From Candidatus Saccharimonadota bacterium (GTDB lineage Bacteria; Patescibacteriota; Patescibacteriia; 2-12-FULL-60-25), in NCBI GenBank assembly GCA_022843095.1, contig JALHOH010000001.1, positions 651,556-683,555 of the forward strand: a stretch of DNA of 32,000 bases, in the 5' to 3' direction. The translations under genes were made by a program, and so were the position numbers. The notes under the pieces were generated by a model. It worked only from the letters and a program-made list of their open reading frames with translations. It ran no database searches and had not been told where the DNA came from. Shown in pieces: positions 3,897 to 27,589 of the stretch; positions within the stretch are counted from its first letter, which is position 1, and the number at the start of each line of letters is the position of its first letter.

Positions 3897-6800
3897 TCAC
3901 GTTGGTGTCCCGGTGTGGTTGTTGGAGAGCGCGAACCGATGTTCGGTCCACGATCCCGGAGCGAGAGAGCTGCGCGCGAGATCGAGATTTCGTTCGTGGT
4001 GCGTAAGCAGCAGAATTTGGGTCGTCCGGGCGAACTCTGCGAGCACTTCGAGGCCTGCGCGTGCGCGTTCATCGTCGAAGTGGATGAAGATGTCGTCGAG
4101 CACCAACGGCATCGGTTCTTGCGCGCCGAGGTGCTGCTCGAGGCTCGCGAGGCGCAGCGAAAGGTAGAGCTGATCGAGCGTACCGTCGCTCAGGCCATGC
4201 TTGACGTCGATCATTTCACTGCCGCGCGCGCAAATCAGCTTCGCCCGATCTCCTTCGTACTCGACGTGTAGGCCTTGGTAGCGCCCGAGCGTTAGCCGCT
4301 CGAACAGCGCGCCCGCCCGGCGAAGAATCGCGCCTTCGTTCTTCTGGCGGTAGTTCTCGATCGCTTTGCGAAGCAGTGCGCTGCCGAGTCGGAGCCGTGC
4401 GTATCGCTCCGCATCCGCTCGTGCGTGCGCGAGCAACTGATGCGCCTCGCCGAGCACGACCGCCGCGTCGTCGGACCCGGAGAATCTCTTCTTTCGCTCT
4501 TCGAGTGCGCCCTGCGCCTTGTGGTGCTCGTCATGCTCGGATTCGAGCGCCTTCAAGCCTTCGTCGAGCGCGGCCATCGACGCAGAAAGCTGGTCGCTGT
4601 CTGTATCTCTCGCTGCTTCTTCGAGAGCTTCCAGCGACCAGCCTTCGCCAACGTCGGCGAGGTGCTTCTCTGCATCGACCTTGCGCGCCTCGATTTGTCT
4701 CGCTTGGTTCGTGCGACTGATCTCGACGTCGAGTTCGGCAAGGTCGCGACACCCAACGCTCTGCAGCAGCGCGTCGAGTCGCTGCCGGGCGGTATTCAAC
4801 GCAAGCGCCGCGTCTTCGTGTTCTCGTGCGAGATTCACGATTTGTTCGTCGATCGTCCGTCGACGCTCGGCGTTCTTCGTGGCAGTCGTGTGAAGTCGAT
4901 CGAGCGCGTCTGCGCGTTCGATCGAAGTGCCGGTAAGTGCGGGCGCGAGTTCATCTACGAGCGCCTTCACGGCAGCATCGAATTTCGCCATTTCCTTCTC
5001 GATCGCTCGGAGCCGCGCCTCCTGGCGCTCGCAGCTCGCCTCCAAGCGAAAGATCTCTGCGAGTCCGTCCATCACAACGTGCGCTTGCTCAATGAGGGCA
5101 TCCTCTGGGAGCCGGAGCTTCGCCACGGCTTCGCGCCACAAGTTGCGCCACGCCGCCTGCTCGTTTTGGTACTGCACGAGCTGCTCCTCGATCTCCTCGA
5201 GCTGTCTCTGGTCGTTGCTGAGGTTGTGTTGGAGGAGCTTGCGGGACTCGTCACGCGCACTGGCCGTCTTCAGCGTCTGCTCTGCATGCACGAGTAGCGC
5301 GAGCCACGACATCGTGCCCGGTGACGCATCAGCGATGTTCAGTGCGTGCTCGATCGTGTGCGTTTGTTCTTGCATCGTCGCGCGCAGGGCCTCGAGCTTC
5401 GCGGCGCGTTCGTTGCGGCGATGCGCTTGCTCGACGATCGCCGAGTGCTCTGCGCGCCAACGGAGCATGTCGCGTGGACGCAACGGTTCGAAGCCGCACG
5501 CGAGCCAAAGTCGCCGCCACTCATCGTTGCGCTGCTGAATGCGCTCGTCGATCTCGTGCAACTCGCGCTGGCACGCGACGAGCTCCGAGGCGAGCGCTTC
5601 CTCGGTTCGTCGAAACCCGAGTAGCTCTGCAGCCCGCCGCGCATCGCGGTTGAGCTCGTCGGCGAGTTCGTCGGCGGAGCGCACGCTCGCGACGTACTCC
5701 ATCTCCAGTGACTCGCCGGGATGTGTCTCGGGGTCTGGGAGCGAGGGGGCGACTCCCGACCTCCAGGCAATCAGAACGCGTCGCCATACGCGCTCGCGGA
5801 GGGATCGTGCGTTCGCAACCCGTTCTACGGACGATGGCTCGCCCGCTGCGACGACGGACGAGATGCTGGAACGAATGTCAGTCAGCTTCAGCTCGCACGC
5901 GCCGATGCGCTTGGTGATCTCGTTCCGTGAGCGTTCCTCGTGCTCGAAGGTCCGGTCGAAGTCGCGGATGACATCTTCTGGAAGGACAGGTAGCGCGAGC
6001 GCTTCGGTCAGCGCGCCACGCCACGGGGCGAGCTTGGGGAGGGCGGCGCCACAACCAGCATCGAGCTCCGCGAGCTGAGTCTCTGCCTCCCGCACGTTGT
6101 CCGCGAGCCTCTTGTCTGGTCGCAAGTACTCCCAGATCGCGCGGAGCGCTGTCGTGTCTTGGGGCTTTGCTTGCGCAGTGAGGTCATCGAGCTGCCGCGC
6201 GACAAGCGAGCGTTTCTTTCTGCCGCTCTCGAGCAACAACTGCAGACTCGACTGCCGCTTGAGTTCCTCTTGCGCGAGGGAGCGAACGCGGGCGAGCGAC
6301 GCGTCGTCGATTCTCTCGTTGCCCAGGTTGCGAGTGTCGACGTCCCCCCAGCCGATTCTACGTAGGTGCTCCCGCTGCTCGTTGCGATAGGTGATGATTT
6401 CCTTCTGAACGCCGGGATAGTCCCGTTGCTCCGTCTTGTGCTTGCCGAGGTGTTCGACCAACGAACGGATGCGAATGCTCGCACCGACGATCGCTTCGTT
6501 AACCTCCAGTTCATCGCGATCTCGTGACGCTCGTTCGAGCGCTCTGCTCGTGCGGAGACAGGTCTCTTCGGCGTGTTCGACGGCGAGCTCGAGCTGGTTG
6601 CGTTGGTGCTCGATGTCTCGTGGCAGTCGTGCTTGTTCCCCCACGGCCAAGAGTTCGCGTTGTGCCGCCTCGCGGAGCCGAAGCCACGGCAACGCTCGCA
6701 GCAATCGCTCGAGACGGTGGCGTTCGGCACGGCAACGCGCCTTCTCGTCGATCAGTTGTTGCTGCTTCACGGTTGCCGCGTCGATCTCGCTCGAGATCGA

Positions 6801-7421
6801 GAGCCAGTCCTTCGGCGGGGCCGCGAGTGCCTTCATGCGGGCAAGCCGTTCGCGGTAGGCGACGAGCGACTTGGTGATCGACCCTGCGTTTCCGCCGGAC
6901 GAAAGGAGCTTCTCTGCGTCTGCGTCGAGGCGCTGAAGCGTTCGGTGGAGCGTCGTGCCGTCGAGCGATGCGCCGAAGAGCATCTTGCCGAGGTCTGTCT
7001 TCGGATCGGCGAGCGCTGCGCCAGCGTGACGGAGTTGCTCGTGGCTGAGGCCAAACATCTGCTCGAAGTGTTTGCGATCACTGATGCTGAGCCAGGCCCT
7101 GAGTACGGCCTCGTCGACGTTTGCCTCCTTCGAGTCAAGCAACGTGGCGCGGTTGCCTTTCTTGCGGACGAACGTGCGTGTGTCCCCATTGGAGTGGAGG
7201 AGTGTTGCGCCGATACGAAGCTCGCTCATTGCGTGCAGGTGCGCGTCGCTGGTCTGCGTCTCGATTCCGTAGAAAAAGCCGGTGATCGCTCGGAGCGTTG
7301 TGCTCTTGCCGGCCTCGTTGGGGCCGTACACGATGTGAAAGTTCGGGCCGGCGGCGAGGAACTCTAGCGACCGACGCGTGAACGGGCCGTACGCGAGCAG
7401 ATCAAGACGGAGAAGCTTCAC
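3897..7421 (-). CDS. SbcC/Rad50-like coiled-coil ATPase (YhaN/AAA_27-type), 1174 aa
   Basis: N-terminal MKLLRLDLLAYGPFTRRSLEF...IVYGPNEAGKSTTLRAI carries the Walker A. A very long charged helical middle follows. The C-terminal LSDGTLDQLYLSLRLA is a signature-like motif, and PLVLDDIFIHFDDERARAGLEVLAEFARTTQILLLTHH gives the Walker B and H-loop. I saw no CxxC zinc hook in the coiled coil. The GTG start overlaps the stop of the upstream nuclease gene (GTGA at 7418-7421). Confidence 0.9.
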   Translation of the reverse strand: MKLLRLDLLAYGPFTRRSLEFLAAGPNFHIVYGPNEAGKSTTLRAITGFFYGIETQTSDAHLHAMSELRIGATLLHSNGDTRTFVRKKGNRATLLDSKEANVDEAVLRAWLSISDRKHFEQMFGLSHEQLRHAGAALADPKTDLGKMLFGASLDGTTLHRTLQRLDADAEKLLSSGGNAGSITKSLVAYRERLARMKALAAPPKDWLSISSEIDAATVKQQQLIDEKARCRAERHRLERLLRALPWLRLREAAQRELLAVGEQARLPRDIEHQRNQLELAVEHAEETCLRTSRALERASRDRDELEVNEAIVGASIRIRSLVEHLGKHKTEQRDYPGVQKEIITYRNEQREHLRRIGWGDVDTRNLGNERIDDASLARVRSLAQEELKRQSSLQLLLESGRKKRSLVARQLDDLTAQAKPQDTTALRAIWEYLRPDKRLADNVREAETQLAELDAGCGAALPKLAPWRGALTEALALPVLPEDVIRDFDRTFEHEERSRNEITKRIGACELKLTDIRSSISSVVAAGEPSSVERVANARSLRERVWRRVLIAWRSGVAPSLPDPETHPGESLEMEYVASVRSADELADELNRDARRAAELLGFRRTEEALASELVACQRELHEIDERIQQRNDEWRRLWLACGFEPLRPRDMLRWRAEHSAIVEQAHRRNERAAKLEALRATMQEQTHTIEHALNIADASPGTMSWLALLVHAEQTLKTASARDESRKLLQHNLSNDQRQLEEIEEQLVQYQNEQAAWRNLWREAVAKLRLPEDALIEQAHVVMDGLAEIFRLEASCERQEARLRAIEKEMAKFDAAVKALVDELAPALTGTSIERADALDRLHTTATKNAERRRTIDEQIVNLAREHEDAALALNTARQRLDALLQSVGCRDLAELDVEISRTNQARQIEARKVDAEKHLADVGEGWSLEALEEAARDTDSDQLSASMAALDEGLKALESEHDEHHKAQGALEERKKRFSGSDDAAVVLGEAHQLLAHARADAERYARLRLGSALLRKAIENYRQKNEGAILRRAGALFERLTLGRYQGLHVEYEGDRAKLICARGSEMIDVKHGLSDGTLDQLYLSLRLASLEQHLGAQEPMPLVLDDIFIHFDDERARAGLEVLAEFARTTQILLLTHHERNLDLARSSLAPGSWTEHRFALSNNHTGTPT

Positions 7422-8674
7422 GGCGTTTCTCCGCTGTCGAGCAGCATCGGGACGAGAAGTTGTTCGACCTCTGCGAGCGCATCTCGCACGGCGCTCGCCG
7501 TATCGAATGCGGGGCGATCGTCGGCGGGCACCGCAGCGAACTTCTGCTGCATGGGGGAGAGCTCGGCCACGAGCGCGTCGAGCGCCGCAGGGTCTTCACG
7601 CTGCGCAGCGATCGTACGAAGCAACTCGCCGAGTGGGGTCGGCTGTCGTCGTAGCTCCTCGATGTCGATCGGCGCTCGCGTGTCGAAGATCACTTTCTCG
7701 ACCCACAGCGCTTCGAGTTCCGCCGCCCTCGCGCGGATCTCGGTTGCGTAGTGCTCGGAGCTCGCGATCAGTTCGCGGTGCGCTGGCGTTGCACCAAAGA
7801 GTCGTACGCGAACTGCGAGGGGCGTCGCCGCCTCGGTTCGGCGAAGCGCCTCGAGGCTCGCGAAGACGAGGTCGACCGCGTGCTGTGCGTTCTGCGCGTG
7901 ATCGAGAGCAACCTCACGCAAGTACCACCGCATCACGTCGAGCGAGCGAGCGTCGAGGGTTGCCTGGCGATCAGCGACCGTGACGAGTGTCGCTCCTTTG
8001 GGACCGGTTTCGCGAATGTGTCTGCCCTGAAGATTGCCAGGAAAAACGACGAATGGGTCGCTTCGGAGCACTTGACGCCGGTGCACGTGTCCGAGCGCCC
8101 AGTAGTCGTAGCCTCGATCGACGAGGCCTTGGATGGCGCATGGTGCGTAGACCGCGTGTTCCTTCGCGCTTCCGTCGGCGCTCGTGTGGAGCAGGCCGAT
8201 ATTGAACATGCCGTTGGCTGGCGGCGGGTACTTCGACGAGAGATCGTGCTGGACGTCGGCGTTTGCGTAGCTCTGTCCGTGCAGCGCGACGCCATGCTCC
8301 GCCAAGATGATCGTCTCGGGCTTCGAAGCGGAGAACTCGCGGACGTTCGACGGTAGTTGAAGTGACTTTGTCATCGAGTTCACCGCATCGTGGTTGCCGC
8401 GCACGATGAAGACTCGAATCTCGCGCTCCTTGAGTCGAAGCATCTGCTGGTTGAAGAAGAGCCCCGTGTTGAAGTCCTTCCAGTCTCCGTCGAAGAGGTC
8501 TCCGACAATCAGCAAGAAGGCGACCTTCTCATCAATGCAGCAGTCGACGAGACGGACGAACGCCTGCCGAGTCGCGCTGCGGATCTCTGCCGATGGTGCG
8601 CCGTCGTATCGCTCGAGGCCTTTCAGCGGGCTGTCGAGGTGAATGTCGGCGGAGTGCATGAACTTGAAGGTCAC
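7418..8674 (-). CDS. SbcD/Mre11-like metallophosphoesterase nuclease (YhaO-type)
   Basis: (V)TFKFMHSADIHLDSPLKG is calcineurin-like motif I. FLLIVGDLFDG is motif II (GDxxD). VFIVRGNHD is motif III (GNHD). GLLHTS and WALGHVH are the later His motifs. I chose the GTG at 8674 (or ATG 8659) because the 5' extension to 8842 has visibly poorer third-position GC and no protein-like sequence. Confidence 0.9.
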   Translation of the reverse strand: MTFKFMHSADIHLDSPLKGLERYDGAPSAEIRSATRQAFVRLVDCCIDEKVAFLLIVGDLFDGDWKDFNTGLFFNQQMLRLKEREIRVFIVRGNHDAVNSMTKSLQLPSNVREFSASKPETIILAEHGVALHGQSYANADVQHDLSSKYPPPANGMFNIGLLHTSADGSAKEHAVYAPCAIQGLVDRGYDYWALGHVHRRQVLRSDPFVVFPGNLQGRHIRETGPKGATLVTVADRQATLDARSLDVMRWYLREVALDHAQNAQHAVDLVFASLEALRRTEAATPLAVRVRLFGATPAHRELIASSEHYATEIRARAAELEALWVEKVIFDTRAPIDIEELRRQPTPLGELLRTIAAQREDPAALDALVAELSPMQQKFAAVPADDRPAFDTASAVRDALAEVEQLLVPMLLDSGETP

Positions 8675-8912
8675 GTGCTTCTCTTGCCTTTCCACTACAC
8701 GAAGCGTTGCAGCGACCCTCGCGAGACGCAGGAGGAAGTCGGAAGTTGCGCACCGAATCCCCCCATGATGTCGTTGCGATCGAGCGCTGTCGGGAGCGAA
8801 TAGTGTCACGAAAGCGTCCGCAGATACATCCATCCAGCGCAATCTCGTGCGCGTGGTCTGCCGCGAGGCGTCTCTTGAAATGAGCCCGTATTCCGCTCAA
8901 AGTCACATGGAT

Positions 8913-9424: not shown

Positions 9425-9655
9425 TCACGCTGAACAGCCGCCGTGAAGATGGCGCCCGCACCGACCGCAGCCAGAGCAGCAGAGCACATCCTCGAGTTTG
9501 CACGATGAGCAACGCGCCGCCTTCGGCAACAACATTGGCGCGAACGCCCCCTTGCACCCCGTGTGCAGGTGTTCGCCGCACCGGCCGCATGAAGAGCAGC
9601 AGAGCACTCCGGATCGAAGATCCTCGCAGCACACGGCCTTGATCGCGTTGATCAT
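9425..9655 (-). CDS. 76-aa Cys/His-rich peptide with an internal tandem duplication
   Basis: MINAIKAVCCEDLRSGVLCCSSCGRCGEHLHTGCKGAFAPMLLPKAARCSSCKLEDVLCCSGCGRCGRHLHGGCSA has 14 Cys and 4 His. The motif VLCCSxCGRCGxHLHxGC occurs twice, 40 codons apart, and is also visible as a DNA repeat at about 9457-9487 and 9577-9607. Codons are mostly G/C-ending, which favours this frame over the overlapping Arg-rich 199-aa ORF 9357..9956. Confidence 0.55.
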   Translation of the reverse strand: MINAIKAVCCEDLRSGVLCCSSCGRCGEHLHTGCKGAFAPMLLPKAARCSSCKLEDVLCCSGCGRCGRHLHGGCSA

Positions 9656-9855: not shown

Positions 9856-10461
9856 TTACGGTTCCAGGCCCCATGTCGTGGTTCCAAAGAGCCGTCCGCC
9901 GGTGTCCGTCGGTCCTCGACCGACGAACGAACGATCGGAAAGCCGCGCGACAACAACGTCGATGTGTGGCTTTTCGCTCACGAGCAGTTCAACCGTTGGT
10001 CGATAGCCGACGAGCGCGACGATCACGATCTGTTTTACGCCCAGCTTTTCAAGAGGATCGAGCAATGCGCGCAGCGACTTGCCCGTGTTGATGACTGCAT
10101 CGACCACCACGACCACCCGATTGGACGCGGGCAGCACAGGCGGCGTGTCCGCGCGGCTGTCGTGGAGGACAAGTGAGCTTCGAGCGAATCGCTCCCACAC
10201 TCCTTCGGCGAGAAAGAGTCCGGCGCGCAGCATGGCGAGAACGATCGGCTCTTCCCCTTCGCGAATGCGAACCCCGACCGACGTGCCGGTGACGTGTTCG
10301 ATGGTGGCTTCCTCGAGCGTCACGTGCCTCGCGACGCATGACGCGAGCGCGCGACCGACCTCACGGTGAGCGTGAGCAAGCGCGGCTCCATGCGTCTCTG
10401 CGCGGCGAGTCACATCAACCAGCAGTCGGATCATTGGGTCAGCGGTGTGATCGATCAGCAT
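9856..10461 (-). CDS. uracil phosphoribosyltransferase-like (type I PRTase) protein
   Basis: IVLAMLRAGLFLAEG matches the UPRT ILRAGLGM motif. VVVVVDAVINTGKS is the PRPP-binding loop. The C-terminal GPTDTGGRLFGTT matches UPRT GLGDAGDRxFGT. The ATG at 10461 overlaps the end of the HAD gene by 23 nt. Confidence 0.8.
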   Translation of the reverse strand: MLIDHTADPMIRLLVDVTRRAETHGAALAHAHREVGRALASCVARHVTLEEATIEHVTGTSVGVRIREGEEPIVLAMLRAGLFLAEGVWERFARSSLVLHDSRADTPPVLPASNRVVVVVDAVINTGKSLRALLDPLEKLGVKQIVIVALVGYRPTVELLVSEKPHIDVVVARLSDRSFVGRGPTDTGGRLFGTTTWGLEP

Positions 10462-11197
10462 GATTTTGTCCTCCTTCGAGTACCAGTTGAATCAGACGGT
10501 CAGCAGTACACCTCGGGAGTCCCTCGAACCGGCGCTCGTCGACGACGAGATGATGCACTCCGCGGACGCGATGGAGTTCTTTGCGAAGCGTTGGGCTCCC
10601 CTTTGGATCCGGAACAAACAGCGCGGCGTCTGCGCGCATAAGCATCGGCAAGTCGATGGGGCTGTCGCCCGCCGCTGCGACGCGGAGTCCATGCTCCTGC
10701 ACGATCGCTACGAGCTCCGCTTTGGTTTCGGGGCACACAAGGTAGGGATCGAGCGCTTGGTTGCATCCGCCAACTACGAGCGCGTCGAAGTGCCTCGCGT
10801 CTGTGAGAATCCTGCGCCATACGTGCGGGATGCCCGCCGTGACCACGACTACGGGAACGCGTCCCCGAACCGCTTCGAGAATCGTGTCCCATGCCGCATG
10901 GATCTTGGTCGTGTCCGCGACCTCCGTGATCGCAGCGAAGTAGCGCTCGTTGTCAACGCAGCCCCAGATTGCCGCCACGCGCGAGAATGCTGCCTCGGAA
11001 TATCCGTGGGTCTCGAACGCCGCACGGATCTCTTCATTGACACCCAAGATTCGACCGACGCGTCGACCTGTGTCGTCGGGCGAGAGGGTGCGGTCGGCGT
11101 CGATGACCAGACACCAGCCGCCTCGCGCGTGATCTCGCAAGTACGGGCTGAGCGTGCGCTCGAGTTCTTGTCGTGTTGGGCGGCGAAGTGGCATCAC
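10439..11197 (-). CDS. HAD-superfamily (HAD-IB/SerB-like) phosphatase
   Basis: Motif I is LVIDADRTL (DxDxT). Motif II is VVVVTAG. A Lys lies in CPETKAEL. Motif IV is AAGDSPIDLPML (GDxxxD). The start (GTG 11197 or ATG 11194) overlaps the stop of the upstream kinase-like gene. Confidence 0.8.
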   Translation of the reverse strand: MMPLRRPTRQELERTLSPYLRDHARGGWCLVIDADRTLSPDDTGRRVGRILGVNEEIRAAFETHGYSEAAFSRVAAIWGCVDNERYFAAITEVADTTKIHAAWDTILEAVRGRVPVVVVTAGIPHVWRRILTDARHFDALVVGGCNQALDPYLVCPETKAELVAIVQEHGLRVAAAGDSPIDLPMLMRADAALFVPDPKGSPTLRKELHRVRGVHHLVVDERRFEGLPRCTADRLIQLVLEGGQNHADRSHR

Positions 11198-11781
11198 GAG
11201 AGCTGCGCATGTGTGTCGAGGAAATCCGAGAGCGCTCGGAGGCGGTCGGACAGCGTGGGGACAACCAGGACGAGAAATGGAACCCCCATCGATGCTGCAA
11301 GCCGGGCCGCTTCTTCGCGTTCTGCCGCGAGGTGCTCCTCGATCTCGGCGAGCGATTCTTGCTCACGAATTCGTGTGTCTCCGCTCCTCCATGATTCGAC
11401 TAGCTCGGCGCGGGCGTCGAGCAGCAGCAGCGCGTCGTAGAAGGCGCGGTCGCCCGGAGTAAAGATCGGTTCGACGGTCCTTGTCGTTCGGTTTCTGAGG
11501 GTGAAGTGTCCATCGACGAGCAGCCGACCAGGCGTCGTTCTACGCACGTCGCGCAGCTTGGTGATCGCTGCTTCACGAACCGCCACTCGACGTGCCGCGG
11601 GCCAGCTGTCGAGTTCTCGGACGGATGAAGGAGCGATGATCGCTTTGACGATCGACGAGCCAATGAGATGACGATCACGGAGTTCGTGCCCGCGCACGTG
11701 GGCCTCGAGGAGCGATGTCTTCCCAACGCCGGGAACGCCGCCAATACAAACGGAAAAGCCGTGCTCTAGTCGCAACTTCAT
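11194..11781 (-). CDS. P-loop NTPase, adenylate/nucleoside-kinase-like
   Basis: I chose ATG 11781 (MKLRLEHGFSVCIGGVPGVGKTSLLEA, Walker A) because GAGGGA lies 5 nt upstream. LLVDGHF is typical of small-molecule kinases of the AK/AAA_18 type. The 5' extension of the track ORF (to 11937) looks non-coding. Confidence 0.75.
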   Translation of the reverse strand: MKLRLEHGFSVCIGGVPGVGKTSLLEAHVRGHELRDRHLIGSSIVKAIIAPSSVRELDSWPAARRVAVREAAITKLRDVRRTTPGRLLVDGHFTLRNRTTRTVEPIFTPGDRAFYDALLLLDARAELVESWRSGDTRIREQESLAEIEEHLAAEREEAARLAASMGVPFLVLVVPTLSDRLRALSDFLDTHAQLS

Positions 11782-12046
11782 GAGGGTCCCTCGCGTGATG
11801 TGATGCATGGAAGAGGAGCGACTCTCTCCGTGCTCGATGAGACGAACTGAATCATCGGGCGCGGACTTCCTGTTGAGTGAGTGTTTCGCCGGACAGGGGG
11901 TGTTCCTCTCTACACGCGTGCGGAAAGCCTCCGGCACTCCTTCGCGGTGAGGTTGGAACGGCTTCGAACGGTTGTCTCGAGCGCGTCAGCGTTGTACGCA
12001 GAGCGGGGAGCAGTGCCATCCTTGTCACCATGCTCGAGGTCGCGCG

Positions 12047-12868
12047 TCAGCCACCGGCGAGTCGCGCCAGCGTCTCGTCGAACCACGCGAGCGCGCTGAA
12101 CTGGAGGCGTTCGAGTCGATCGTCCGGTTGGACGCCCGCGCGAACGGTCGGAAGCCCCATCATCGGTGTGCAGGTCGCGCACGATGGCAGCGCGCTCGGT
12201 TGGTGGAGATACGCCTCGAGGTCCGCGAGCGTCGTTGCGTCGTCGAGCGCGAGCCCTTCATCGTCGCGGCGCAGCTTGGGGATTCGCGAACAGGCAAACA
12301 ATCGCCCCCTCTCGATCGTGACGCAGTGACGACGATACCAACAGGTGTCGTAGAGTCGTTGAGCGCGCTCCGCGGAGACCCGCTGGATCGTGGACCAAGC
12401 GTCCCAACCATCGTCGTTACGGCGGACGCAAACTTCCACATGAGGAGCAACGATCGTGAGCCACAGACGCCACGAGTCGAGGAGCTGCGCTGAAAGGCCG
12501 TAGTCGCTGATCGTGAGCCGTTGGATGGCCGCAAGCGTGGCCGCGGTGACTCCGCGAGGTGTGAGGCCATTGGTTACGACCTCGATGCGATTTGCTGTGG
12601 CTGTGGCTCGAAAGGCCGTCACCGCCCGTTCGAGTAGCGGACCGTTGATTGTTGGCTCTCCCCCAAGCACGGCTAGGCTGTCGATTTTCACGCCGAGTTT
12701 GCGAAGGTGCACGAGCGCGGTTGCATGCTCCTCGACGGGGTCTCCCTGAGCAGGCATCGGCTGCTCGGGGACGAGAAACCCACACTCGGCGCACGCGAGG
12801 GTGCAGAACGGCGTGATCGAGACCTCGACCTCGCGGAGACGATGTTCAGCGAGAATTTTCAGCGGCAT
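12047..12868 (-). CDS. radical SAM enzyme (subfamily unresolved)
   Basis: SITPFCTLACAECGF carries the CxxxCxxC cluster motif. LAVLGGEPTIN is a GGE-type SAM motif. VVTNGL and LTISDYG follow. Additional C-terminal Cys (CWYRRHC, then C 10 residues later, then CATC) may bind an auxiliary cluster. A strong SD (GAGGAGG) lies upstream of ATG 12868. Confidence 0.8.
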   Translation of the reverse strand: MPLKILAEHRLREVEVSITPFCTLACAECGFLVPEQPMPAQGDPVEEHATALVHLRKLGVKIDSLAVLGGEPTINGPLLERAVTAFRATATANRIEVVTNGLTPRGVTAATLAAIQRLTISDYGLSAQLLDSWRLWLTIVAPHVEVCVRRNDDGWDAWSTIQRVSAERAQRLYDTCWYRRHCVTIERGRLFACSRIPKLRRDDEGLALDDATTLADLEAYLHQPSALPSCATCTPMMGLPTVRAGVQPDDRLERLQFSALAWFDETLARLAGG

Positions 12869-13168
12869 GCAGATTCCTCCTCACCGTCAATCGTGGGTGT
12901 GATCCAACAACGCTGCGGTCGCGGCTGTGTCTCGCGTTGGTGAGCGTCGTACGCCTCGCACGGGGAGCTGCGTCTGCTCGCTTGGGGCCCTTCGTCGGCG
13001 AACACAGTGCCGTCCTCGTCGGAAGCGCGACCGCGCGAAGGATCAGCGATTTGTGGAATGTTGTGCAGATCGAGCGATGGAGTGCGTGGGATGCACTGTG
13101 TCGGGCTCGAGGCAGTTGAGGAAAGTCGCACAGCATAGGCGCGTTGAACCTTTTTCGACGTTGTGAAG

Positions 13169-13345
13169 CTACGCCGCGCGCTTTGCGGACTTTGCCGGTC
13201 TCGTCGGAGTTGCAGGCGAGGGCAGCGCAGAGGCGGGGAGGTGGCCAAGCTTCACTCTGTTCGCGATGTCCGCAGCGTATGCTGCGGTCTTCGGATCTTT
13301 GACGATGCTTCGCTGATCGTTTGGGGAGGGATGGTGTTTCGACAT
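13169..13345 (-). CDS. possible small ORF (58 aa), unknown function
   Basis: MSKHHPSPNDQRSIVKDPKTAAYAADIANRVKLGHLPASALPSPATPTRPAKSAKRAA, with AAGGA 7 nt upstream of ATG 13345. It lies in the 600-bp divergent intergenic region between the radical SAM gene and the 916-aa gene. It is weakly supported. Confidence 0.3.
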   Translation of the reverse strand: MSKHHPSPNDQRSIVKDPKTAAYAADIANRVKLGHLPASALPSPATPTRPAKSAKRAA

Positions 13346-13471
13346 CGCGGGGTCCTTTGGCGGAGAGCGAATCGGCGACTGATTCGCCGGTGTGCTCGCA
13401 GGGGACGATGCACCGACGATCTTGCTGACGCAACTCTGCAAATCAATGCATCGATTGCAGTTTGTTGCATC

Positions 13472-16222
13472 ATGGAATTGCAATCGCATTGCGTGGCGCC
13501 GTACGGTCACTCCGTGGACGTCAAGAAGCGGATCGAGCGAACGGGTGCATCGAACGACGAGCTTGCGCGACGCGTGATGGAGTACGTCGCAAAGGGCCCT
13601 GGCTACGAGCATCGGGTGAGTGCGCGATCGCTCGGCGCGAAGATTGGAGAGCTCGCGAGGGGTACCGAAACGTGGTGGCGAAGCCCGAAGCAAGCGAACT
13701 ACCTCGACGCGCTTGCTCGCGAGCTGGAGTGCGATAGAGACGACCTCGTCGCACCGATCGAAGCGCGGCGTCCGCAGCCTGTCATCGTTGAGTTTCCCGA
13801 GCTTGCAGTCGAAGCGCTCGCTCCACTCGCCCCGCTCTACGGCGAGCAAGCGCTCAGCGACATCGTTGCGGCACAGCTTGGAACTGGCGGCTTCTCGTGG
13901 CTGGTTGTGCCTGACGGCGGTGGAAAGAGTCTCGCCCTCGAGTTTCTACGCCGCGTACGAATCGACGTGGTGACCATGTCGGCCCACACGCTCTACGAGG
14001 TCAGCGAACGAATCGACGCCAACCGACGTACTGCGATCGACCTCGACCGCCCCGACGCTCGCACTGACAACTTGCTCGTGCGGCGACTGCGCGAAGCGAA
14101 GTCAGTGTGCGTGCTCGCGCCGTTCCCGCCTCCGACAGCGCTTGTTGGAATCGTACGTGCCTTCGCGCTGCAGCTGCAGTCCGACTGGCGGCAGCGTCTG
14201 TTCTCGTGGCTGAACGCACAGCACCCTGAAAACAAGAGACTCGACGCGAAGGAGTGGGAGATCTTCCTGGAGCACTTCGACCCCGACCTGGTGCGTGTCG
14301 TGACTCCCGCCGATCTCCTTTCGTTGCTCGGCTGCGCGTTCTCGCTCGGCATCCCAACGAGCAAGACGAAATACGGCGAGCTCGCTCGTCGCGCGGTCGC
14401 TGCGCGCGTTCAGCAGTCCGGCCCCGGCGCGCCTTGGCTGTCGCGTCACGGTGCTGCGGCGTTCGAGGCGTTGGTGCGTCAGCGCTTCGAGTCTGTCGCG
14501 TGGCGCTCGTCGCTTCCCGATGATGCGTGGGCGACGCTGCTGCGCCCAGAGCACTGCCCTGCACCCGATGGAAAGCAGCTCCGAGCGCTGAGCGAGCGCG
14601 TGAAGCTCGGCGCGAAGAGCGCGCGCGACGCTAAAACGATCGGCGACGAGATCGCGGAGCTTGCCTCACGAGCCGATTCAATGACGGCGATCGCATCACT
14701 TCGCGCAAGCGGCCTCTTCGCTCGCACGGCGGATGGATCTCTGGAGCCATCGCCTACATGGGTACGCGACGCGCTCGAGGGGGAGCGCGCCGACCTGCTC
14801 GTTGCAGAGGGATCGATCGAACAGTTGGGGCGCGTCTGTGCTGACGTTTCGCGGCGGCCGCTGATGGATGCAGCACTGCTTCGACTGCCGCCGCCGAAGC
14901 TGGTTCAGCTCATCGTTCGTGCGCTCGCCGAGGTCGAAGCCACACTCGGCGTCGTGGCTACGATCGAGGCCCTGTTCGAGGCGGCCGGGCACCGAATGCA
15001 CGAAGGCTGGACGCCAACAAACGAGCAACTCCCAACGCTTCGCGCGCTCGGGCTTCGACAGTGGCAATTGCTGCGCGCGCTGCCATCCTTACCTGCGACA
15101 CAGCAGCACCTGCCGTTGACGCGTCGATCCGTGCGCGAGGGCGACGGACGCAGCGCAGAGTGGCTTGCTGCTGCATGGAGGTTCACGCTCACGGTCCCGC
15201 TGGTCGAGCCCGCGACAGTCGAGTTCGACTGGCGTTTTGCCGGTTGGAAGCGGCCCCTCACGTTCGCAGACCTTGCTGAACATCTGCCGTTTCCGTACCT
15301 CGCGGTGTACGCGCCATCCCCGAACGGACACGCTTCTGTGATCCCTGGTTTCGACGCGCGGCCGCTCTCGCGAGAGGAGAGACGCCTCCATCTGCCGCTC
15401 GCAGAGCTCGGACGAGAGCTACTCGAGCGGGTCACCGACTCGTCGATCGGCGACAACATCCCGCTTGGGCTCTTCGCGCCAGCTCTTCTGGTTGCACGTA
15501 CCAAGGGATGGCGCTTCGCCCGGCAGCACTTGGAGTCGCTCTTCGATTCCCGCGTGCTCGACGTCCTCTTCGCGTGGGTGCCTGAGGAGGACGACGAGTG
15601 GACGGGACTCGCCCCGTGGTTCTGGTCGATGTGGCGCGACGAGATGCCGAACGAGAAACGCACGCTCGACTACCTCTTGAAGCTCGACATGCGACTCGTG
15701 CGCGTGCTCGTTCGCAACCTTTCGTCAGCGAGCCTCGTCGATGGTTGCCCTGTCTTCCCACCTCCGCGGCTCGTCGACCTGCTGCACGACCTCGGTCGTG
15801 CGGAGGTCGTGAGGGACATCGCGCACCGCAGCCTCCGAGCGATCATCAACGCAGCATTTCCACGGCCAAGCACGGAGGAACTGTCGAAGATGATCGCGCT
15901 CGTCGGCGATGAAGACCTCGACGTGCTCGTCGAGTGCGCGACGGACGCGTACTGGTTCGGAGTGCAAGCTGCAGCGAGGGTATGGGAACTCGACGCCGAC
16001 CGCGCGCTGCAAGCGCTGCAGTTGGCGCTGACTCACGCGGAGGCAACACGCGCGTACGCGTGGCTCGTTAGCGCTCCGAAGCTACAGTGGGAGCGCGTGC
16101 TCGATGCGATCGACGCTGCACCGTCAGCGGCCGGCGCCGTGCGGTGGTTGAGCGATAGTCTTTCGCAGGCGGAGGGTCTCGCTCCGCGTATGTTCGAAGC
16201 TTGGTTGCGGCTCAAGGAGTGA
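13472..16222 (+). CDS. large orphan protein (916 aa): HTH-like N-terminus, degenerate P-loop, long helical C-terminal region
   Basis: I start at ATG 13472 (MELQSH...) because the upstream 103 codons are Arg/Cys-rich junk. The N-terminus ASNDELARRVMEYV...VSARSLGAKIGELARG resembles an Xre-type HTH. WLVVPDGGGKSLALEF is a Walker-A-like loop that deviates from [AG]xxxxGK[ST]. TAIDLD may be a Walker B. The remaining roughly 650 aa are Leu/Ala-rich and helical with no motif I recognise. Confidence 0.7.
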   Translation: MELQSHCVAPYGHSVDVKKRIERTGASNDELARRVMEYVAKGPGYEHRVSARSLGAKIGELARGTETWWRSPKQANYLDALARELECDRDDLVAPIEARRPQPVIVEFPELAVEALAPLAPLYGEQALSDIVAAQLGTGGFSWLVVPDGGGKSLALEFLRRVRIDVVTMSAHTLYEVSERIDANRRTAIDLDRPDARTDNLLVRRLREAKSVCVLAPFPPPTALVGIVRAFALQLQSDWRQRLFSWLNAQHPENKRLDAKEWEIFLEHFDPDLVRVVTPADLLSLLGCAFSLGIPTSKTKYGELARRAVAARVQQSGPGAPWLSRHGAAAFEALVRQRFESVAWRSSLPDDAWATLLRPEHCPAPDGKQLRALSERVKLGAKSARDAKTIGDEIAELASRADSMTAIASLRASGLFARTADGSLEPSPTWVRDALEGERADLLVAEGSIEQLGRVCADVSRRPLMDAALLRLPPPKLVQLIVRALAEVEATLGVVATIEALFEAAGHRMHEGWTPTNEQLPTLRALGLRQWQLLRALPSLPATQQHLPLTRRSVREGDGRSAEWLAAAWRFTLTVPLVEPATVEFDWRFAGWKRPLTFADLAEHLPFPYLAVYAPSPNGHASVIPGFDARPLSREERRLHLPLAELGRELLERVTDSSIGDNIPLGLFAPALLVARTKGWRFARQHLESLFDSRVLDVLFAWVPEEDDEWTGLAPWFWSMWRDEMPNEKRTLDYLLKLDMRLVRVLVRNLSSASLVDGCPVFPPPRLVDLLHDLGRAEVVRDIAHRSLRAIINAAFPRPSTEELSKMIALVGDEDLDVLVECATDAYWFGVQAAARVWELDADRALQALQLALTHAEATRAYAWLVSAPKLQWERVLDAIDAAPSAAGAVRWLSDSLSQAEGLAPRMFEAWLRLKE

Positions 16223-22671: not shown

Positions 22672-23238
22672 ATGGTTGAGCCAACAACACCCAAGTCCCC
22701 TCGTTTCGAGTTCTTATGGAAAGTGCTAGGTCGCTTCGATACGTACATCGGAGCAACACTTACGCGTGCAGGGATGACCGCCGCATTCAACGCAGTGGTG
22801 CTTGGCCTCGCTGCAGGAAAGTGGTCGGAGTTCTTCGGAATGGACCACCAGCATGCAACCGCAAAGTGTGTTGTGGCGTTCGCGCTGGTGGCCTCGGCAG
22901 CATGTTCGCTATTTTCGCTCGCATGTGCGCTACTCGCAGTGGATCCACTGTTGACGACACCAACCACGCTGCCGAAGATGCATTCCACAGTATTCTTCGG
23001 AGACGTAGCTAGGTTCACAGATCCGACCAGTTACAAAAGTGCCGTGGACGCTGCCTCCGAACAGGATCTCGAGTCGGATCTTGCAACGCAAGTGTACGTG
23101 GTGGGTAAGATTGTTGACACGAAGTTCCGTTATCTGAAACGAGCATCATTCGGAATGATGCTATCGCTGGCGTTCATCGCAGTCGCAGTCAGCGCCAAAT
23201 CCTGCACAACGATCGTTGATGCAGTGGGAGGAATCTGA
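22672..23238 (+). CDS. 3-TM membrane protein, PycTM/DUF5706-like candidate effector
   Basis: Three hydrophobic segments are present: AGMTAAFNAVVLGLAAG, CVVAFALVASAACSLFSLACALLAV and SFGMMLSLAFIAVAVSA. The loop motif HSTVFFGDVARFTDPTSYKSAV...DLATQVYVVGKIVDTKFRYLKRA resembles the xxFFGxxxxxxxxxY...Kyxxl pattern I recall for the DUF5706 family, which contains Pycsar TM effectors. Its stop overlaps the cyclase start. Confidence 0.55.
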   Translation: MVEPTTPKSPRFEFLWKVLGRFDTYIGATLTRAGMTAAFNAVVLGLAAGKWSEFFGMDHQHATAKCVVAFALVASAACSLFSLACALLAVDPLLTTPTTLPKMHSTVFFGDVARFTDPTSYKSAVDAASEQDLESDLATQVYVVGKIVDTKFRYLKRASFGMMLSLAFIAVAVSAKSCTTIVDAVGGI

Positions 23239-24554
23239 TGGTACAGCCAACTCTTCAGCGCGTTCTTGAATCAGAATTCGCGCGATATCGGACGTTTTCG
23301 AGAGAAAAAGTGGCGCTGTCCGAACGTCACCGTGATTCAGCAACGAACCCAAGTGGCCAAGTATCTCCCGCACTTGCTCCTCACTATGGGGTGCAGGAGA
23401 TCGTTCGACCTATGTTCGGGAAGGGGCCAAGCAAAACCCCGTCGATCGGCGACCATCCGGACTTTCAGCACTTGAAACAGACGGACAAGCACGAGTTCTG
23501 CGCAATCACAACTCTTTTCATGGACATTGAAAGCTCTACGCGACTAGGGATCTTGTACGAACCCAAAGACGTGTTCGAGATCAAGAATGCAGTCATTCGG
23601 ATGGCCATGGATATCGTGCGTTCTTTCGATGGCCACGTTCACCGAATCATGGGGGACTCCGTCATGGCATTCTTCGGTGGTCGCTCGATTGTTGCCGAGC
23701 AGGGTGCCATCGACGCGATCAACTGTGCGGCTGTACTGCGCTTGTTCTCACAGGTCGTCGTTGCACCTTACCTTGCGCAAAACGGAATCACGGATCCGGT
23801 TGGAATCCGCACAGGGATCGACTTTGGACCAAGCGAAAAGGTGCTGTGGAAGTCCTATGGCTACCCTGGCATGGAAGAGGTAACAGCGACGTCGTTCTTC
23901 GTTGACGTTGCCGCAAAACTCCAGCACTCAGCAGGCCGAAATCAGATCGCGATGGGTCAGTCTCTTCGTGAGCTTTTGGACTTTCCTGACGAACTACTGG
24001 ACACCAAGACATCGATCAAAGATGGTGAACGTCAACGAGACCCATACATTCAACCCAATCACACCAACCGTGACGGCAAGCCGATCAACTATCGTATGTT
24101 TCTACTCAACTGGGAGCAATACCTTGCGTGCACAAGAATCGCACAACTCGAACAGCACTTGGTTGATTCAAAGAGGCATGGCGCTACTGGTCTTCAAGTC
24201 GAAGCGACCATCTTCCGCGAGCAAACCGATCCGCTCCCGATTTGTCCGTATCACCCCTGCGGATCACATGTAGCGAAGAATCGATCCATCCGGTTTCGGG
24301 CAAAACTTCAACACCAGCCGCACCTCCCGTTTACGGTTCGCTTCTCGGTTGAGAATCACGGCCAGGAGGCACGAACGCAAGGTGGAGAGTCGTTAGGAAA
24401 CCACCATACAGACTACTCGATTACAAAGACGGGGGTCTTGCAGTTTACTCATAGCGAACCGACGGCTTTTCGCGGACTTCACTACTTGAACGTAGAGATC
24501 CTGAATTCGGGTGCACTGCAGGAAAGAGTCCGCTTCGGAGTCTATGTCGAATAG
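23238..24554 (+). CDS. class III nucleotidyl cyclase domain protein with long N- and C-terminal extensions (Pycsar PycC-like candidate)
   Basis: GGAGGA lies 5 nt upstream. TTLFMDIESSTRL gives the first metal Asp in an F-x-D-I context. HRIMGDSVMAFFG gives K/RxxGD and the second metal Asp. VGIRTGIDFGP is the IGIHxG-like strand. SFFVDVAAKLQ occupies the position of the usual VNxAxRL. About 85 aa lie N-terminal and about 170-190 aa C-terminal to the cyclase core, with no motif I recognise. Confidence 0.8.
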   Translation: MVQPTLQRVLESEFARYRTFSREKVALSERHRDSATNPSGQVSPALAPHYGVQEIVRPMFGKGPSKTPSIGDHPDFQHLKQTDKHEFCAITTLFMDIESSTRLGILYEPKDVFEIKNAVIRMAMDIVRSFDGHVHRIMGDSVMAFFGGRSIVAEQGAIDAINCAAVLRLFSQVVVAPYLAQNGITDPVGIRTGIDFGPSEKVLWKSYGYPGMEEVTATSFFVDVAAKLQHSAGRNQIAMGQSLRELLDFPDELLDTKTSIKDGERQRDPYIQPNHTNRDGKPINYRMFLLNWEQYLACTRIAQLEQHLVDSKRHGATGLQVEATIFREQTDPLPICPYHPCGSHVAKNRSIRFRAKLQHQPHLPFTVRFSVENHGQEARTQGGESLGNHHTDYSITKTGVLQFTHSEPTAFRGLHYLNVEILNSGALQERVRFGVYVE

Positions 24555-27588: not shown

Positions 27589-27589
27589 C

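Follow-up and report, generated by a model that had tools for sequence, protein, structure and literature searches.

The minus strand of the window, by which we mean the whole 32,000-nt stretch of DNA that was analysed, carries four co-oriented genes between positions 9856 and 12868. These encode a radical SAM enzyme (rSAM; 12047-12868, 273 aa), a P-loop kinase (11194-11781, 195 aa), a HAD phosphatase (10439-11197, 252 aa), and a phosphoribosyltransferase (PRTase; 9856-10461, 201 aa), and together they represent a stand-alone form of the cassette described here. The last three genes are interlocked: the kinase stop overlaps the HAD start at 11194-11197, and the HAD end overlaps the PRTase start by 23 nt (10439-10461). 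A sequence-only reading of this DNA had reported the same gene layout and the same overlaps, together with a set of signature motifs (CxxxCxxC, GVPGVGKTS, DxDxT/GDxxxD, VVVVDAVINTGKS, and RLFGT); the open reading frames reproduce the former, and all of the latter can be read in their translations.

That reading also noted a gap of 265 bp between the rSAM and kinase genes (11782-12046) and took it to weaken the link between them. The length of this non-coding spacer depends on where the kinase begins. The longest kinase frame is open to GTG 11937, but an alignment with 14 homologues (A2) places the start at ATG 11781, which makes the gap 265 bp; no homologue was found for the 52-codon N-terminal extension that the GTG would add. 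The spacer itself contains no promoter-like or terminator-like site, has no match in Rfam, folds with a z-score of -0.94, is not repeated elsewhere in the window, and shows no similarity to the inserts found at the same cassette in two relatives (L008 and L053). In most relatives, there is no gap but a 4-bp overlap between the rSAM and kinase genes, and in the closest relatives the position of the gap is occupied by genes for an MkoA-like helicase and an MkoB-like nuclease. Because the slot holds this pair in the closest relatives, the gap is no argument against a functional link.

Four genes as one functional unit

Homologues of the rSAM gene lie at 39 distinct loci, 29 of which contain all four genes. 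Contig ends interrupt seven others, in which the genes that remain stand in the expected order, and the last three are truncated remnants; among the distinct loci with enough room, none places the rSAM gene in an unrelated neighbourhood. Two gene orders occur (rSAM-kinase-HAD-PRTase and kinase-HAD-PRTase-rSAM), and successive cassette genes overlap in most relatives. Moreover, the genes are fused in several of them: kinase to HAD at three loci (L035, L038, and L039), rSAM to kinase in P0121, and all four in P0124, a single 791-aa kinase-HAD-PRTase-rSAM polypeptide. Divergence from the window copies is likewise correlated among the four genes, with Spearman coefficients over 27 distinct loci of 0.83 (rSAM-HAD), 0.75 (rSAM-PRTase), and 0.91 (HAD-PRTase), and of 0.59 for rSAM-kinase over 21 loci. 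In two contexts the trio lacks a detectable rSAM, and a Thermoplasmata MAG carries the trio. Since the arrangement recurs in dozens of unrelated contigs, it is far beyond chance, and co-occurrence extends past the trio to all four genes, which shows that they form one functional unit.

No other gene of the window travels with the cassette in the comparison of neighbours across loci. This includes the adjacent nuclease/ATPase pair (AAA_27 and Metallophos), to which the sequence-only reading had drawn attention. Nor was a transporter, regulator, immunity, antitoxin, or sensor gene found to be conserved with the four.

Enzyme families

The rSAM protein carries the SAM-cluster motif C22xxxC26xxC29 and a GGEPT motif. 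Its family alignment (A1) conserves further cysteines for an auxiliary cluster (C176, C193, C230, and C233, and also C182) and a basic patch specific to the family (CWYRRHC...ERGR...SRIPK; in the family, CWYR[KR]HC / ERGR / SRIxK). The 98 homologues share 39-71% identity. Although the Pfam Radical_SAM profile scores only 26.5 bits, under the Pfam cutoff of 29.5, the protein is established as a radical SAM enzyme because its model is confident (pLDDT 93.4) and matches SpeY (7wzv/7wzx) over its full length as the best Foldseek hit (E 1e-13, TM 0.71). A profile search against the PDB also finds SpeY (3.3e-12), with the CxxxCxxC and GGEP motifs and the four auxiliary cysteines aligned. SpeY, like BtrN, is a twitch radical SAM dehydrogenase of an aminoglycoside pathway. 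Thus, the cassette enzyme is a twitch-domain enzyme nearest to the sugar dehydrogenase SpeY. It differs from SpeY in sharing only ~20% identity, in the basic patch, which SpeY lacks, and in its partners, which are nucleotide enzymes rather than aminoglycoside genes.

Viperins, MoaA, AbmM, and DesII are among the structural neighbours that follow, all of them enzymes whose substrates are sugars or nucleotide riboses; for viperin and MoaA, the match is confined to the N-terminal core. A viperin-like assignment is rejected, as the viperin match covers ~155 residues at TM 0.41 and the NCBIfam viperin_w_prok model gives 15.3 bits where 180 are required, and so is a QueE-like one, given that the twitch-domain enzyme lies closest to SpeY. 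The viperin-type and deazapurine precedents first cited for this locus are therefore analogies, not homologies.

The PRTase matches Pfam UPRTase (PF14681, E 1e-29) and aligns over its full length with UPRT 1o5o (2.5e-26), with differences at the residue level. The PRPP loop VVVVDAVINTGKS and the LRAGL motif are intact, but the base-binding loop is altered (G-R-G-P-TDTG-G-RLFGT), and in the window's clade the flexible loop is shortened, which could mean reduced or changed activity. Against the two NCBIfam upp models, the protein scores 66 and 62.6 bits, well under cutoffs of 114 and 208. Judged from its sequence, it is a divergent UPRT paralogue and not an orthologous upp.

The kinase, with its Walker A motif GGVPGVGKTS and a conserved DGH motif, matches AAA_17 (E 4.7e-9) and, below cutoff, the NCBIfam archaeal adenylate kinase PRK04040 (4.3e-6). 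Archaeal adenylate kinases are also what its profile finds in the PDB (7owe at 3.4e-7 and 1nks at 2.5e-6, over most of their length), so the protein resembles an archaeal adenylate kinase. The phosphatase (PF12710, E 3.9e-10) has all four HAD catalytic motifs, D33xD35xT37 (read as D33-A-D35-R-T37), T119, K159, and G177-D178-xxx-D182 (G177-D-S-P-I-D182), the residues of which are invariant in alignments A4 and A6. Its model (pLDDT 93.9) has a helical cap at residues 43-110, and its structural neighbours are HADs of the phosphoserine-phosphatase/ThrH type (TM ~0.55), with cytosolic 5'-nucleotidase III further down; the sequence match to the pyrimidine 5'-nucleotidase cN-III is weak and partial (1.6e-4). 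A large C1 cap is typical of HAD phosphatases that act on small molecules rather than macromolecules, and the cassette enzyme is a C1-capped small-molecule phosphatase.

Mobile and defence-rich contexts

The family is very small: 1.84 billion proteins include only 22 representatives at E<=1e-30. Its members are scattered over Pseudomonas, Stutzerimonas, Halopseudomonas, Gallaecimonas, Ectothiorhodospira, and Ketobacteraceae, as well as Myxococcales and Deltaproteobacteria MAGs. In P. aeruginosa, a plasmid-like contig of 12.9 kb carries the cassette downstream of its genes for replication and mobilisation, and in Gallaecimonas the cassette is flanked by guaA on one side and a 3' remnant of guaA on the other. 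Searches of IMG/VR, phage, and PLSDB records did not recover it, so its link to mobile elements is drawn from a few loci. The cassette is horizontally mobile and sporadic, not core.

The defence-like and mobile setting proposed for the window holds up. Besides an integrase and a relaxase, the window has a Pycsar system (PycC 5e-126), and in relatives, where anti-phage systems are often close by, the cassette adjoins a type IIG restriction-modification gene, BREX PglZ/BrxL, or DrmB and PD-T4-6-like genes (DISARM). Pooled neighbours also match ThsA, LmuA, and JukA/B in an analysis run without a background control. The immediate neighbours in the window give no solid defence matches, and one context (L048: PadR, MacB, and GH64) is not defence-like. 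A recurrent association is with a helicase/nuclease pair resembling that of Mokosh type I, which consists of MkoA, a serine/threonine kinase joined to a Upf1-like helicase, and the PLD nuclease MkoB (bioRxiv 10.1101/2022.05.11.491447). In three clades, MkoA-like (1.4e-103) and MkoB-like (2e-32) genes stand beside the cassette or within it, and many relatives carry the pair; it is missing from the window and from most loci. The cassette-linked helicases match only positions 424-1092 of the 1112 in the MkoA model and hence lack its kinase-domain region, and genes for an rSAM, a PRTase, a HAD, or an NMP kinase are absent from the Mokosh systems that have been described.

A candidate nucleotide pathway and its alternatives

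No description of the cassette was found in the literature searched, and none of its four proteins matched a PADLOC 2.0 defence model. The closest validated analogue, which is non-homologous, is Ophion, composed of OpnA (rSAM), OpnB (a PHP phosphatase), and OpnC (PRTase) (bioRxiv 10.1101/2025.09.30.679545). Ophion is a proven defence against jumbo phages that depends on residues of its rSAM and PRTase, and its proposed mode of action is interference with the synthesis of phage nucleic acids (bioRxiv 10.1101/2025.09.30.679545). Both systems unite an rSAM, a phosphoesterase, and a PRTase in one small operon, and both occur in Gammaproteobacteria. However, OpnA and the cassette rSAM family align over only ~100 residues, within the generic core of rSAM enzymes (77% probability), OpnA has no visible counterpart of the C-terminal cysteines, its phosphatase is a PHP and not a HAD enzyme, OpnC is placed in the ShosT/retron PRTase clade rather than being UPRT-like, and Ophion has no kinase. 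Prokaryotic viperins (pVips) offer a second comparison: their rSAM acts on a nucleotide ribose, some have an adjacent nucleotide kinase, and viperins are among the structural neighbours of the N-terminal half of the cassette enzyme. Viperins nonetheless lack the twitch auxiliary cluster, and the cassette rSAM has no match to the PADLOC pVip models.

We put at about an even chance that the cassette is one mobile unit which converts a free base into a sugar-modified pyrimidine-type nucleotide, most likely against phages or mobile elements. In the route that we infer, the UPRT-like enzyme would couple PRPP to a uracil-like base, and the resulting nucleoside 5'-monophosphate would be phosphorylated by the adenylate-kinase-like enzyme. 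The twitch rSAM, gripping the phosphorylated substrate with its conserved Arg/Lys/His patch, would then abstract a ribose hydrogen, and its auxiliary Fe-S cluster might help to oxidise or dehydrate the sugar. Finally, the capped HAD would take off a phosphate, either to release or tune the product or to protect the host pool. The product may poison viral nucleic-acid synthesis or act as the small-molecule partner of the Mokosh-like RNA helicase/PLD nuclease pair. Against this route, the substrate of SpeY is an aminoglycoside precursor and no nucleotide, so a sugar outside nucleotides could equally be the target of the rSAM, and a phosphatase seems counter-productive if the active species is an NTP analogue.

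Alternatively, although this is unlikely, the cassette might be a miniature gene cluster whose product, a nucleoside antimetabolite, is secreted to compete with other bacteria. In this case, the PRTase would join on the base, the rSAM would elaborate the sugar, and a last dephosphorylation by the HAD would yield an exportable nucleoside. PRTases and HADs are combined in the nucleoside-antibiotic pathways of toyocamycin (ToyH/ToyI) and angustmycin (AgmE/AgmB/AgmC). The same combination occurs for minimycin (MinD/MinC-N), with the PRTase either installing the base or competing for it and the HAD removing the 5'-phosphate, and the minimycin cluster includes a UPRTase and a terminal dephosphorylation by a HAD (PMC6908994). 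A capped HAD suits such a final step, SpeY is itself an antibiotic-pathway enzyme, and plasmid carriage suits a competition trait. However, the cassette has no NRPS, C-glycosynthase, or QueC/D/E, and no conserved transporter, regulator, or immunity gene; it resides in defence islands and plasmids beside defence systems and Mokosh-like partners rather than in actinomycete gene clusters among secondary-metabolite genes; and the kinase would be superfluous if a nucleoside were the end product.

It is improbable that the cassette acts by abortive infection, with a triggered futile cycle of PRTase, kinase, and phosphatase draining PRPP and ATP or distorting pyrimidines and the rSAM serving as trigger or auxiliary toxin. 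PRTase effectors do occur in ShosTA, PsyrTA, and type III retrons, and ShosT disrupts purine metabolism (PMC11961720); kinase-phosphatase fusions could make such a cycle, and the contexts are defence islands. Yet the cassette PRTase belongs to the UPRT family and is hit by the ShosT model in the PRPP loop only (E 0.003), antitoxin or sensor genes are not conserved, and an elaborate, strictly conserved twitch rSAM fused to three other domains points to biosynthesis rather than pure degradation.

A protective role is quite improbable. Here, the UPRTase would raise UMP, the HAD would dephosphorylate a toxic monophosphate, and the rSAM would inactivate a nucleoside analogue from a competitor, a phage, or a neighbouring system of the host, much as MinD and MinC-N safeguard minimycin producers (PMC6908994). 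The trio can indeed occur without the rSAM, but nearly all loci have the rSAM, which P0124 joins to the trio in one polypeptide, the base loop is unlike that of canonical uracil-binding UPRTs, which argues against simple UMP boosting, and no producer cluster was found nearby.

Processing of RNA or DNA ends left by the Mokosh-like nuclease, with the kinase and HAD working like the 5'-kinase/3'-phosphatase T4 Pnkp and the other two enzymes modifying a base or sugar of the polynucleotide, is highly improbable. The fusions do mirror the order in T4 Pnkp, with an N-terminal P-loop kinase and a C-terminal DxDxT phosphatase, and the helicase/nuclease association is recurrent; against this, the C1 cap favours small molecules, the best kinase matches are NMP kinases, and neither the window nor the majority of loci carries the helicase and nuclease. 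Ordinary pyrimidine salvage by a upp paralogue, an NMP kinase, and a nucleotidase beside an unrelated rSAM gene, which the salvage-type domain families and the gap ahead of the trio in the window would suit, is largely refuted by the sub-cutoff upp scores, the rare, sporadic, and mobile distribution, and the conserved, sometimes fused, rSAM.

The modified-nucleotide pathway proposed by the sequence-only reading is thus supported by every computational check made, with a predicted chemistry and a putative antiviral role. The four genes appear to be an uncharacterised mobile cassette that probably encodes an antiviral pathway.

Domain assignments of the four cassette proteins

The four minus-strand ORFs that the sequence-only reading had placed in the cassette are real, and ORF translation assigns the UPRT-like phosphoribosyltransferase (PRTase) to 9856-10461, the HAD phosphatase to 10439-11197, the P-loop kinase (as its longest ORF) to 11194-11937 and the radical SAM enzyme (rSAM) to 12047-12868. 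The kinase/HAD overlap at 11194-11197 and the 23-nt overlap between the HAD and PRTase genes are both visible in the translations, and all of the motifs quoted in that reading were found directly in them. Pfam recognises UPRTase (1e-29), HAD (3.9e-10) and AAA_17 (4.7e-9) domains in the PRTase, HAD protein and kinase, respectively. The Radical_SAM match of the fourth protein (26.5 bits) lies slightly below the Pfam cutoff; its predicted identity as a radical SAM enzyme is settled by a confident structure model together with profile matches.

The rSAM model (pLDDT 93.4) has its best structural match in SpeY, the twitch radical-SAM dehydrogenase of an aminoglycoside pathway (7wzv/7wzx; Foldseek E 1e-13, TM 0.71, full length), which is also the best match in sequence (profile search, E 3.3e-12). 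In the family alignment, C22, C26 and C29 of the CxxxCxxC motif are invariant, and GGEPT, with the GGE motif for SAM binding, is conserved; C176, C193, C230 and C233 are likewise invariant and align with SpeY cysteines, and C182 is also conserved. Judged from the model and these alignments, the enzyme is of the twitch type, with a C-terminal domain bearing the cysteines for a predicted auxiliary [4Fe-4S] cluster. A basic patch (CWYR[KR]HC, ERGR and SRIxK) is conserved within the family and missing from SpeY, which may hint at a phosphorylated substrate.

The viperin-type and QueE-like affinities considered earlier did not hold up, the SpeY twitch type being closest. In Foldseek, the matches of viperins and MoaA are confined to the N-terminal core, the viperin alignment covering about 155 residues at a TM of about 0.41, and AbmM, EpeE and DesII give longer, looser alignments (TM 0.42-0.48). 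A viperin or pVip (prokaryotic viperin) identity is rejected by NCBIfam NF038283 (15.3 bits vs. a cutoff of 180), and the PADLOC pVip model yields no match at E<=0.1; a single-cluster viperin fold is rejected on account of four to five extra conserved cysteines, which align with the SpeY twitch cluster. QueE identity is likewise rejected, as QueE is absent from the NCBIfam matches and the 19 profile-vs-PDB matches; nor is it among the 50 Foldseek matches listed for this protein. With no QueE-type rSAM, and no QueC, QueD or FolE domains in the window ORFs scanned, a deazapurine pathway of the toyocamycin/queuosine type is rejected as well.

The kinase is most similar to archaeal adenylate kinases (7owe, 1nks, 1ki9 and 6pjw; E 3e-7 to 1.5e-5), the profile-vs-PDB matches spanning most of the length of each. 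G15, G18, G20 and K21, together with the G91-H92 pair of the DGH motif, are invariant, and the protein has both the P-loop and the overall architecture of an NMP kinase; it misses the AdkA equivalog cutoff (PRK04040, 26.4 bits vs. 155). In the HAD protein, all four catalytic motifs are kept: D33, D35, T37, K159, G177, D178 and D182 are invariant, and motif II has T or S (residue 119 in the window) in xxT/SxG, upstream of the invariant G122. In its confident structure model (pLDDT 93.9), five helices at residues 43-110 form a C1 cap that separates motif I from motif II, and the nearest folds in Foldseek are phosphoserine phosphatase (PSP)/ThrH, with cytosolic 5'-nucleotidase III (cN-III) further down.

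The PRTase is a UPRT homologue over its full length (profile E 2.5e-26 to 1o5o) with intact PRPP motifs; R79, D121, V123, N125 and G127 are invariant (VDxVINTG), and both the PRPP-binding loop and LRAGL are present. In its base loop, a conserved GxGxTDTGxRLF replaces the canonical UPRT GLGDAGDRLFGT; the uracil-binding loop G-L-G-D-A-G-D-R-L-F-G-T is not present, and the substitute is one residue longer. The flexible loop is shortened in the PRTases of the window's clade.

Co-occurrence and spread of the cassette

Close homologues of the rSAM number 98, at 39-71% identity, and come from scattered taxa. Among the 55 loci fetched in all, 39 distinct ones contain an rSAM homologue, and in 29/39 of these it is accompanied by kinase, HAD and PRTase genes; the question whether all four genes or only the kinase-HAD-PRTase trio recur together is thereby answered in favour of all four. 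Another seven of the 39 loci end at a contig edge, with a partial order as expected, and three retain only the rSAM gene and the 5' two-thirds of the kinase gene. None of the 39 loci that has room places the rSAM gene in an unrelated neighbourhood. The three reduced loci, from Stutzerimonas frequens (L009), a Ketobacteraceae MAG (L010) and a short contig (L022), carry the same truncated remnant (at about 9971-11330 in L009 and L010), consisting of an intact rSAM and the first ~137 kinase residues, which suggests a decayed copy spread horizontally.

In the nearer relatives, the genes run rSAM-kinase-HAD-PRTase, the stop of one usually overlapping the start of the next, and in the remoter ones kinase-HAD-PRTase-rSAM. 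Fusions also occur: the kinase and HAD are joined in a 440-aa protein in three loci (L035, L038 and L039; L038:2079-3401), the database protein P0121 (456 aa) is an rSAM-kinase fusion, and P0124 (791 aa) unites all four domains in a single polypeptide, the family HMMs scoring 8e-16 for the kinase, 6e-19 for the HAD, 3e-23 for the PRTase and 2e-103 for the rSAM part. The four genes have diverged from their window counterparts in a correlated manner (Spearman 0.59-0.91 over 27 distinct loci, which are phylogenetically non-independent), and no other window gene travels with the cassette in related loci. A HAD-side search revealed the trio without a detectable rSAM in two contexts, an IS-rich contig and a Thermoplasmata archaeon MAG (L050:1921-4347; 50-52% identity to the window proteins); thus, the trio is a sub-module, of which the rSAM is the usual but not obligatory partner. 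In the archaeal locus, an unrelated 160-aa ORF occupies the rSAM position ahead of the trio, and a resolvase and an N6/N4 DNA methyltransferase follow it.

Of 1.84 billion cluster representatives, only 22 belong to the rSAM family proper at E<=1e-30, with a sharp score drop thereafter; related twitch rSAMs number roughly 1000. A contig scan with single-sequence patterns returned only 4 loci, the patterns being too specific. No match was found in PLSDB plasmids or INPHARED phages by tblastn of the rSAM, or in IMG/VR scanned with the family alignment. An exact-sequence look-up likewise returned no record for the PRTase or rSAM of the window itself. Hosts include Pseudomonas aeruginosa, Stutzerimonas, Halopseudomonas, Gallaecimonas, Ectothiorhodospira, Ketobacteraceae, and Myxococcales and Deltaproteobacteria MAGs. 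It should be added that P0135 (2198 aa), a very large, AT-rich protein of several domains in which a related twitch-rSAM domain occurs twice amid uncharacterised regions, reads like a giant-virus or protist gene.

Mokosh-like genes, the 265-bp spacer and the rest of the window

In three separate clades, the cassette occurs with an MkoA-like Upf1-type helicase (E 1.4e-103) and an MkoB-like PLD nuclease (E 8e-24 to 2e-32), i.e., relatives of the Mokosh type I pair. In one clade (L028-L033 and L040), these genes lie downstream of a second rSAM, as in L028:5136-9071 (also L029, L030, L033 and L040), where the order is kinase-HAD-PRTase-rSAM, second rSAM, MkoA-like helicase. A pVip identity of this second rSAM is rejected: PADLOC matches are weak, and the protein is SPASM-type, nearest to CteB and anSME. 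In another clade (L037 and L038), the Mokosh-like genes are convergent to the cassette. In the third, the pair sits inside an otherwise intact cassette, between the rSAM and kinase genes; the seven genes of L053 (1137-9285), all co-oriented and tightly packed, encode rSAM, MkoA-like (885 aa) and MkoB-like (842 aa) proteins, a 70-aa ORF, kinase, HAD and PRTase. A frameshifted version of this layout is found in L008 (8001-16211), and L055 (3-3120) has MkoB-kinase-HAD-PRTase. These three loci are the closest relatives of the window cassette (rSAM identity 64-71%). In the helicases linked to the cassette, the match to the MkoA model is limited to its helicase part; MkoA of type I, as published, includes a Ser/Thr kinase domain as well, and for Mokosh the original description went no further than a hypothesis (bioRxiv 10.1101/2022.05.11.491447).

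The window itself lacks MkoA-like and MkoB-like proteins, as judged by tblastn with those of cassette-linked relatives, and a Mokosh identity of its cassette is thus rejected. Alignment with homologues places the kinase start at ATG 11781, and no homologue was found for the 52 codons upstream; the 265-bp gap between the rSAM and kinase genes (11782-12046), described in the sequence-only reading, is therefore real. This unusual spacer coincides with the slot that the helicase/nuclease pair occupies in the nearest kin. No remnant of such an insert was found in it by sequence, so that loss of the pair and its never having been gained are indistinguishable. The spacer also contains no promoter-like or terminator-like site, no Rfam family, no unusual structure and no repeat.

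Elsewhere in the window, a complete Pycsar pair (PADLOC; PycC 5e-126, PycTM 1.5e-24) is encoded on the plus strand at 22672-24554, PycTM (188 aa) being followed directly by the PycC cyclase (438 aa) with an AGS_C domain; the GC content of this patch (53-56% vs. about 64% elsewhere) suggests recent acquisition. Further right, the minus strand carries a phage-type integrase (26281-27900), a Replic_Relax protein (relaxase; 28254-29732) and, overlapping its gene, a HerA/mad8-like ATPase ORF (29443-30978); these genes (26281-30978) give the right-hand side of the window the look of an integrative mobile element. On the other side of the cassette, translationally coupled minus-strand genes at 3897-8842 encode an SbcCD-like pair of an AAA_27 ATPase (1174 aa) and a calcineurin-like phosphoesterase (474 aa), which has only weak LmuB/PtuA-type PADLOC matches and accompanies the cassette in no related locus. 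Just downstream of the PRTase gene, a 76-aa cysteine-rich minus-strand ORF (9425-9655) shows an internal duplication, with CCSxCGRCGxHLHxGC occurring twice, which matches a 45-nt direct repeat at a spacing of 120 nt; it has no Pfam match and no homologue in related loci. It may encode a small protein that binds metal, or the ORF may be spurious and merely reflect the repeat in the DNA. Divergent from the rSAM gene is a plus-strand 1019-aa ORF (13163-16222) that neither Pfam nor PADLOC recognises and that has no counterpart beside the cassette elsewhere. Neither it nor the AAA_27/Metallophos pair, the genes flanking the cassette, has convincing defence matches.

Proposed pathway, competing explanations and known systems

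On the best-supported reading, the cassette would encode a self-contained pathway that starts from a free pyrimidine-like base and ends at a sugar-modified nucleotide; what the enzymes act on, in which sequence, and what they make is inferred. The PRTase would join the base to PRPP to give an NMP, which the NMP kinase would phosphorylate; the twitch rSAM might then abstract a ribose C-H hydrogen, with oxidation or dehydration helped by the auxiliary cluster, and the HAD enzyme would remove phosphate for product release or tuning, or for protection of the host pool.

The genomic company of the cassette bears on its purpose. On a 12.9-kb P. aeruginosa contig with TrfA, KfrA, MobA and TraD, it follows the replication and mobilisation genes. 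On the chromosome of Gallaecimonas sp. GXIMD1310 (L005:7087-10892), it has guaA on one side and a 34-aa copy of the guaA C-terminus on the other, an arrangement that resembles a minimal insertion at the 3' end of guaA; the interval also takes in some 0.9 kb of DNA upstream of the cassette, and no integrase was called in the part displayed. In E. marina, its neighbours are a type IIG R-M gene and a Y1 transposase, BREX PglZ/BrxL lie about 6 kb away in a marine genome with an IS3 element between, and DrmB-like and PD-T4-6-like genes flank it in L018. In another locus (L048), PadR, MacB and GH64 surround it, a non-defence context. Pooled neighbours (138 ORFs) also match ThsA, LmuA, JukA/B, integrases and transposases, a scan that is qualitative only because it has no background control. 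Since the distribution is mobile, sporadic and of the defence-island kind, and linkage to the Mokosh-type pair recurs, an anti-phage or anti-mobile-element role appears to be the most likely biology of the cassette, with the balance standing about level. A more specific proposal is put forward tentatively: the cassette may be an unrecognised anti-phage module that starts from a free base and PRPP and whose twitch rSAM makes a new sugar-oxidised or dehydrated pyrimidine nucleotide, by a chemistry unlike that behind the 3'-deoxy-3',4'-didehydro-NTPs (ddhNTPs) of viperin; this product would poison viral polymerases or partner the kinase-less Mokosh-type helicase/PLD nuclease, the window holding the autonomous four-gene version.

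The same enzymes could serve other ends. A secreted nucleoside antimetabolite is unlikely, and abortive infection through a drain of PRPP and ATP is decidedly improbable. Minimycin biosynthesis offers a precedent for a UPRTase + HAD pair acting as a 'safeguard' (PMC6908994), and a protective module of this kind is very unlikely here. Pnkp-like end processing of nucleic acids seems extremely doubtful; the HAD protein is, according to its model, a small-molecule phosphatase of the PSP/cN-III fold group. Plain salvage is scarcely credible: it had been noted that the PRTase might prove to be the orthologous upp, and it scores far under both NCBIfam equivalog cutoffs (NF001097, 66 vs. 114; TIGR01091, 62.6 vs. 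208.35).

Among validated systems, the closest by logic to the proposed nucleotide-modifying pathway is Ophion, which combines an rSAM (OpnA), a PHP phosphatase (OpnB) and a PRTase (OpnC) and is active against jumbo phages (bioRxiv 10.1101/2025.09.30.679545). The components that define it have no homologues among those of the cassette. With the OpnA sequence of Table S1 of the Ophion preprint, hhalign of the rSAM family aligned 100 columns of the rSAM core only (probability 77%), and homology is rejected. The cassette phosphatase is a HAD (PF12710) and not a PHP, a domain absent from the window ORFs scanned, and OpnC belongs to the ShosT/retron PRTase clade, whereas the cassette PRTase is UPRT-like throughout, the PADLOC ShosT model matching residues 113-152 (the PRPP loop) only (E 0.003). 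None of the four proteins is covered by a PADLOC 2.0 model, and the gene combination is described neither there nor in the literature searched. The cassette is rated as a putative conflict system of the kind that makes nucleotide analogues, but with a different set of enzyme families.

If this reading holds, the cassette would be another prokaryotic route to antiviral nucleotide analogues, with enzyme families unlike those of viperin and Ophion, and its twitch rSAM would bring to nucleotides the chemistry of the SpeY/BtrN type, in which a secondary alcohol of a sugar or cyclitol is dehydrogenated. Because the cassette would be self-contained, from base to modified nucleotide, it should be easily moved and reconstituted, and the four-domain fusion P0124 is a ready single-polypeptide version for biochemistry. 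The Mokosh-like pairs embedded in cassettes provide a handle on Mokosh, and the product of the cassette could be a new nucleoside-analogue scaffold.
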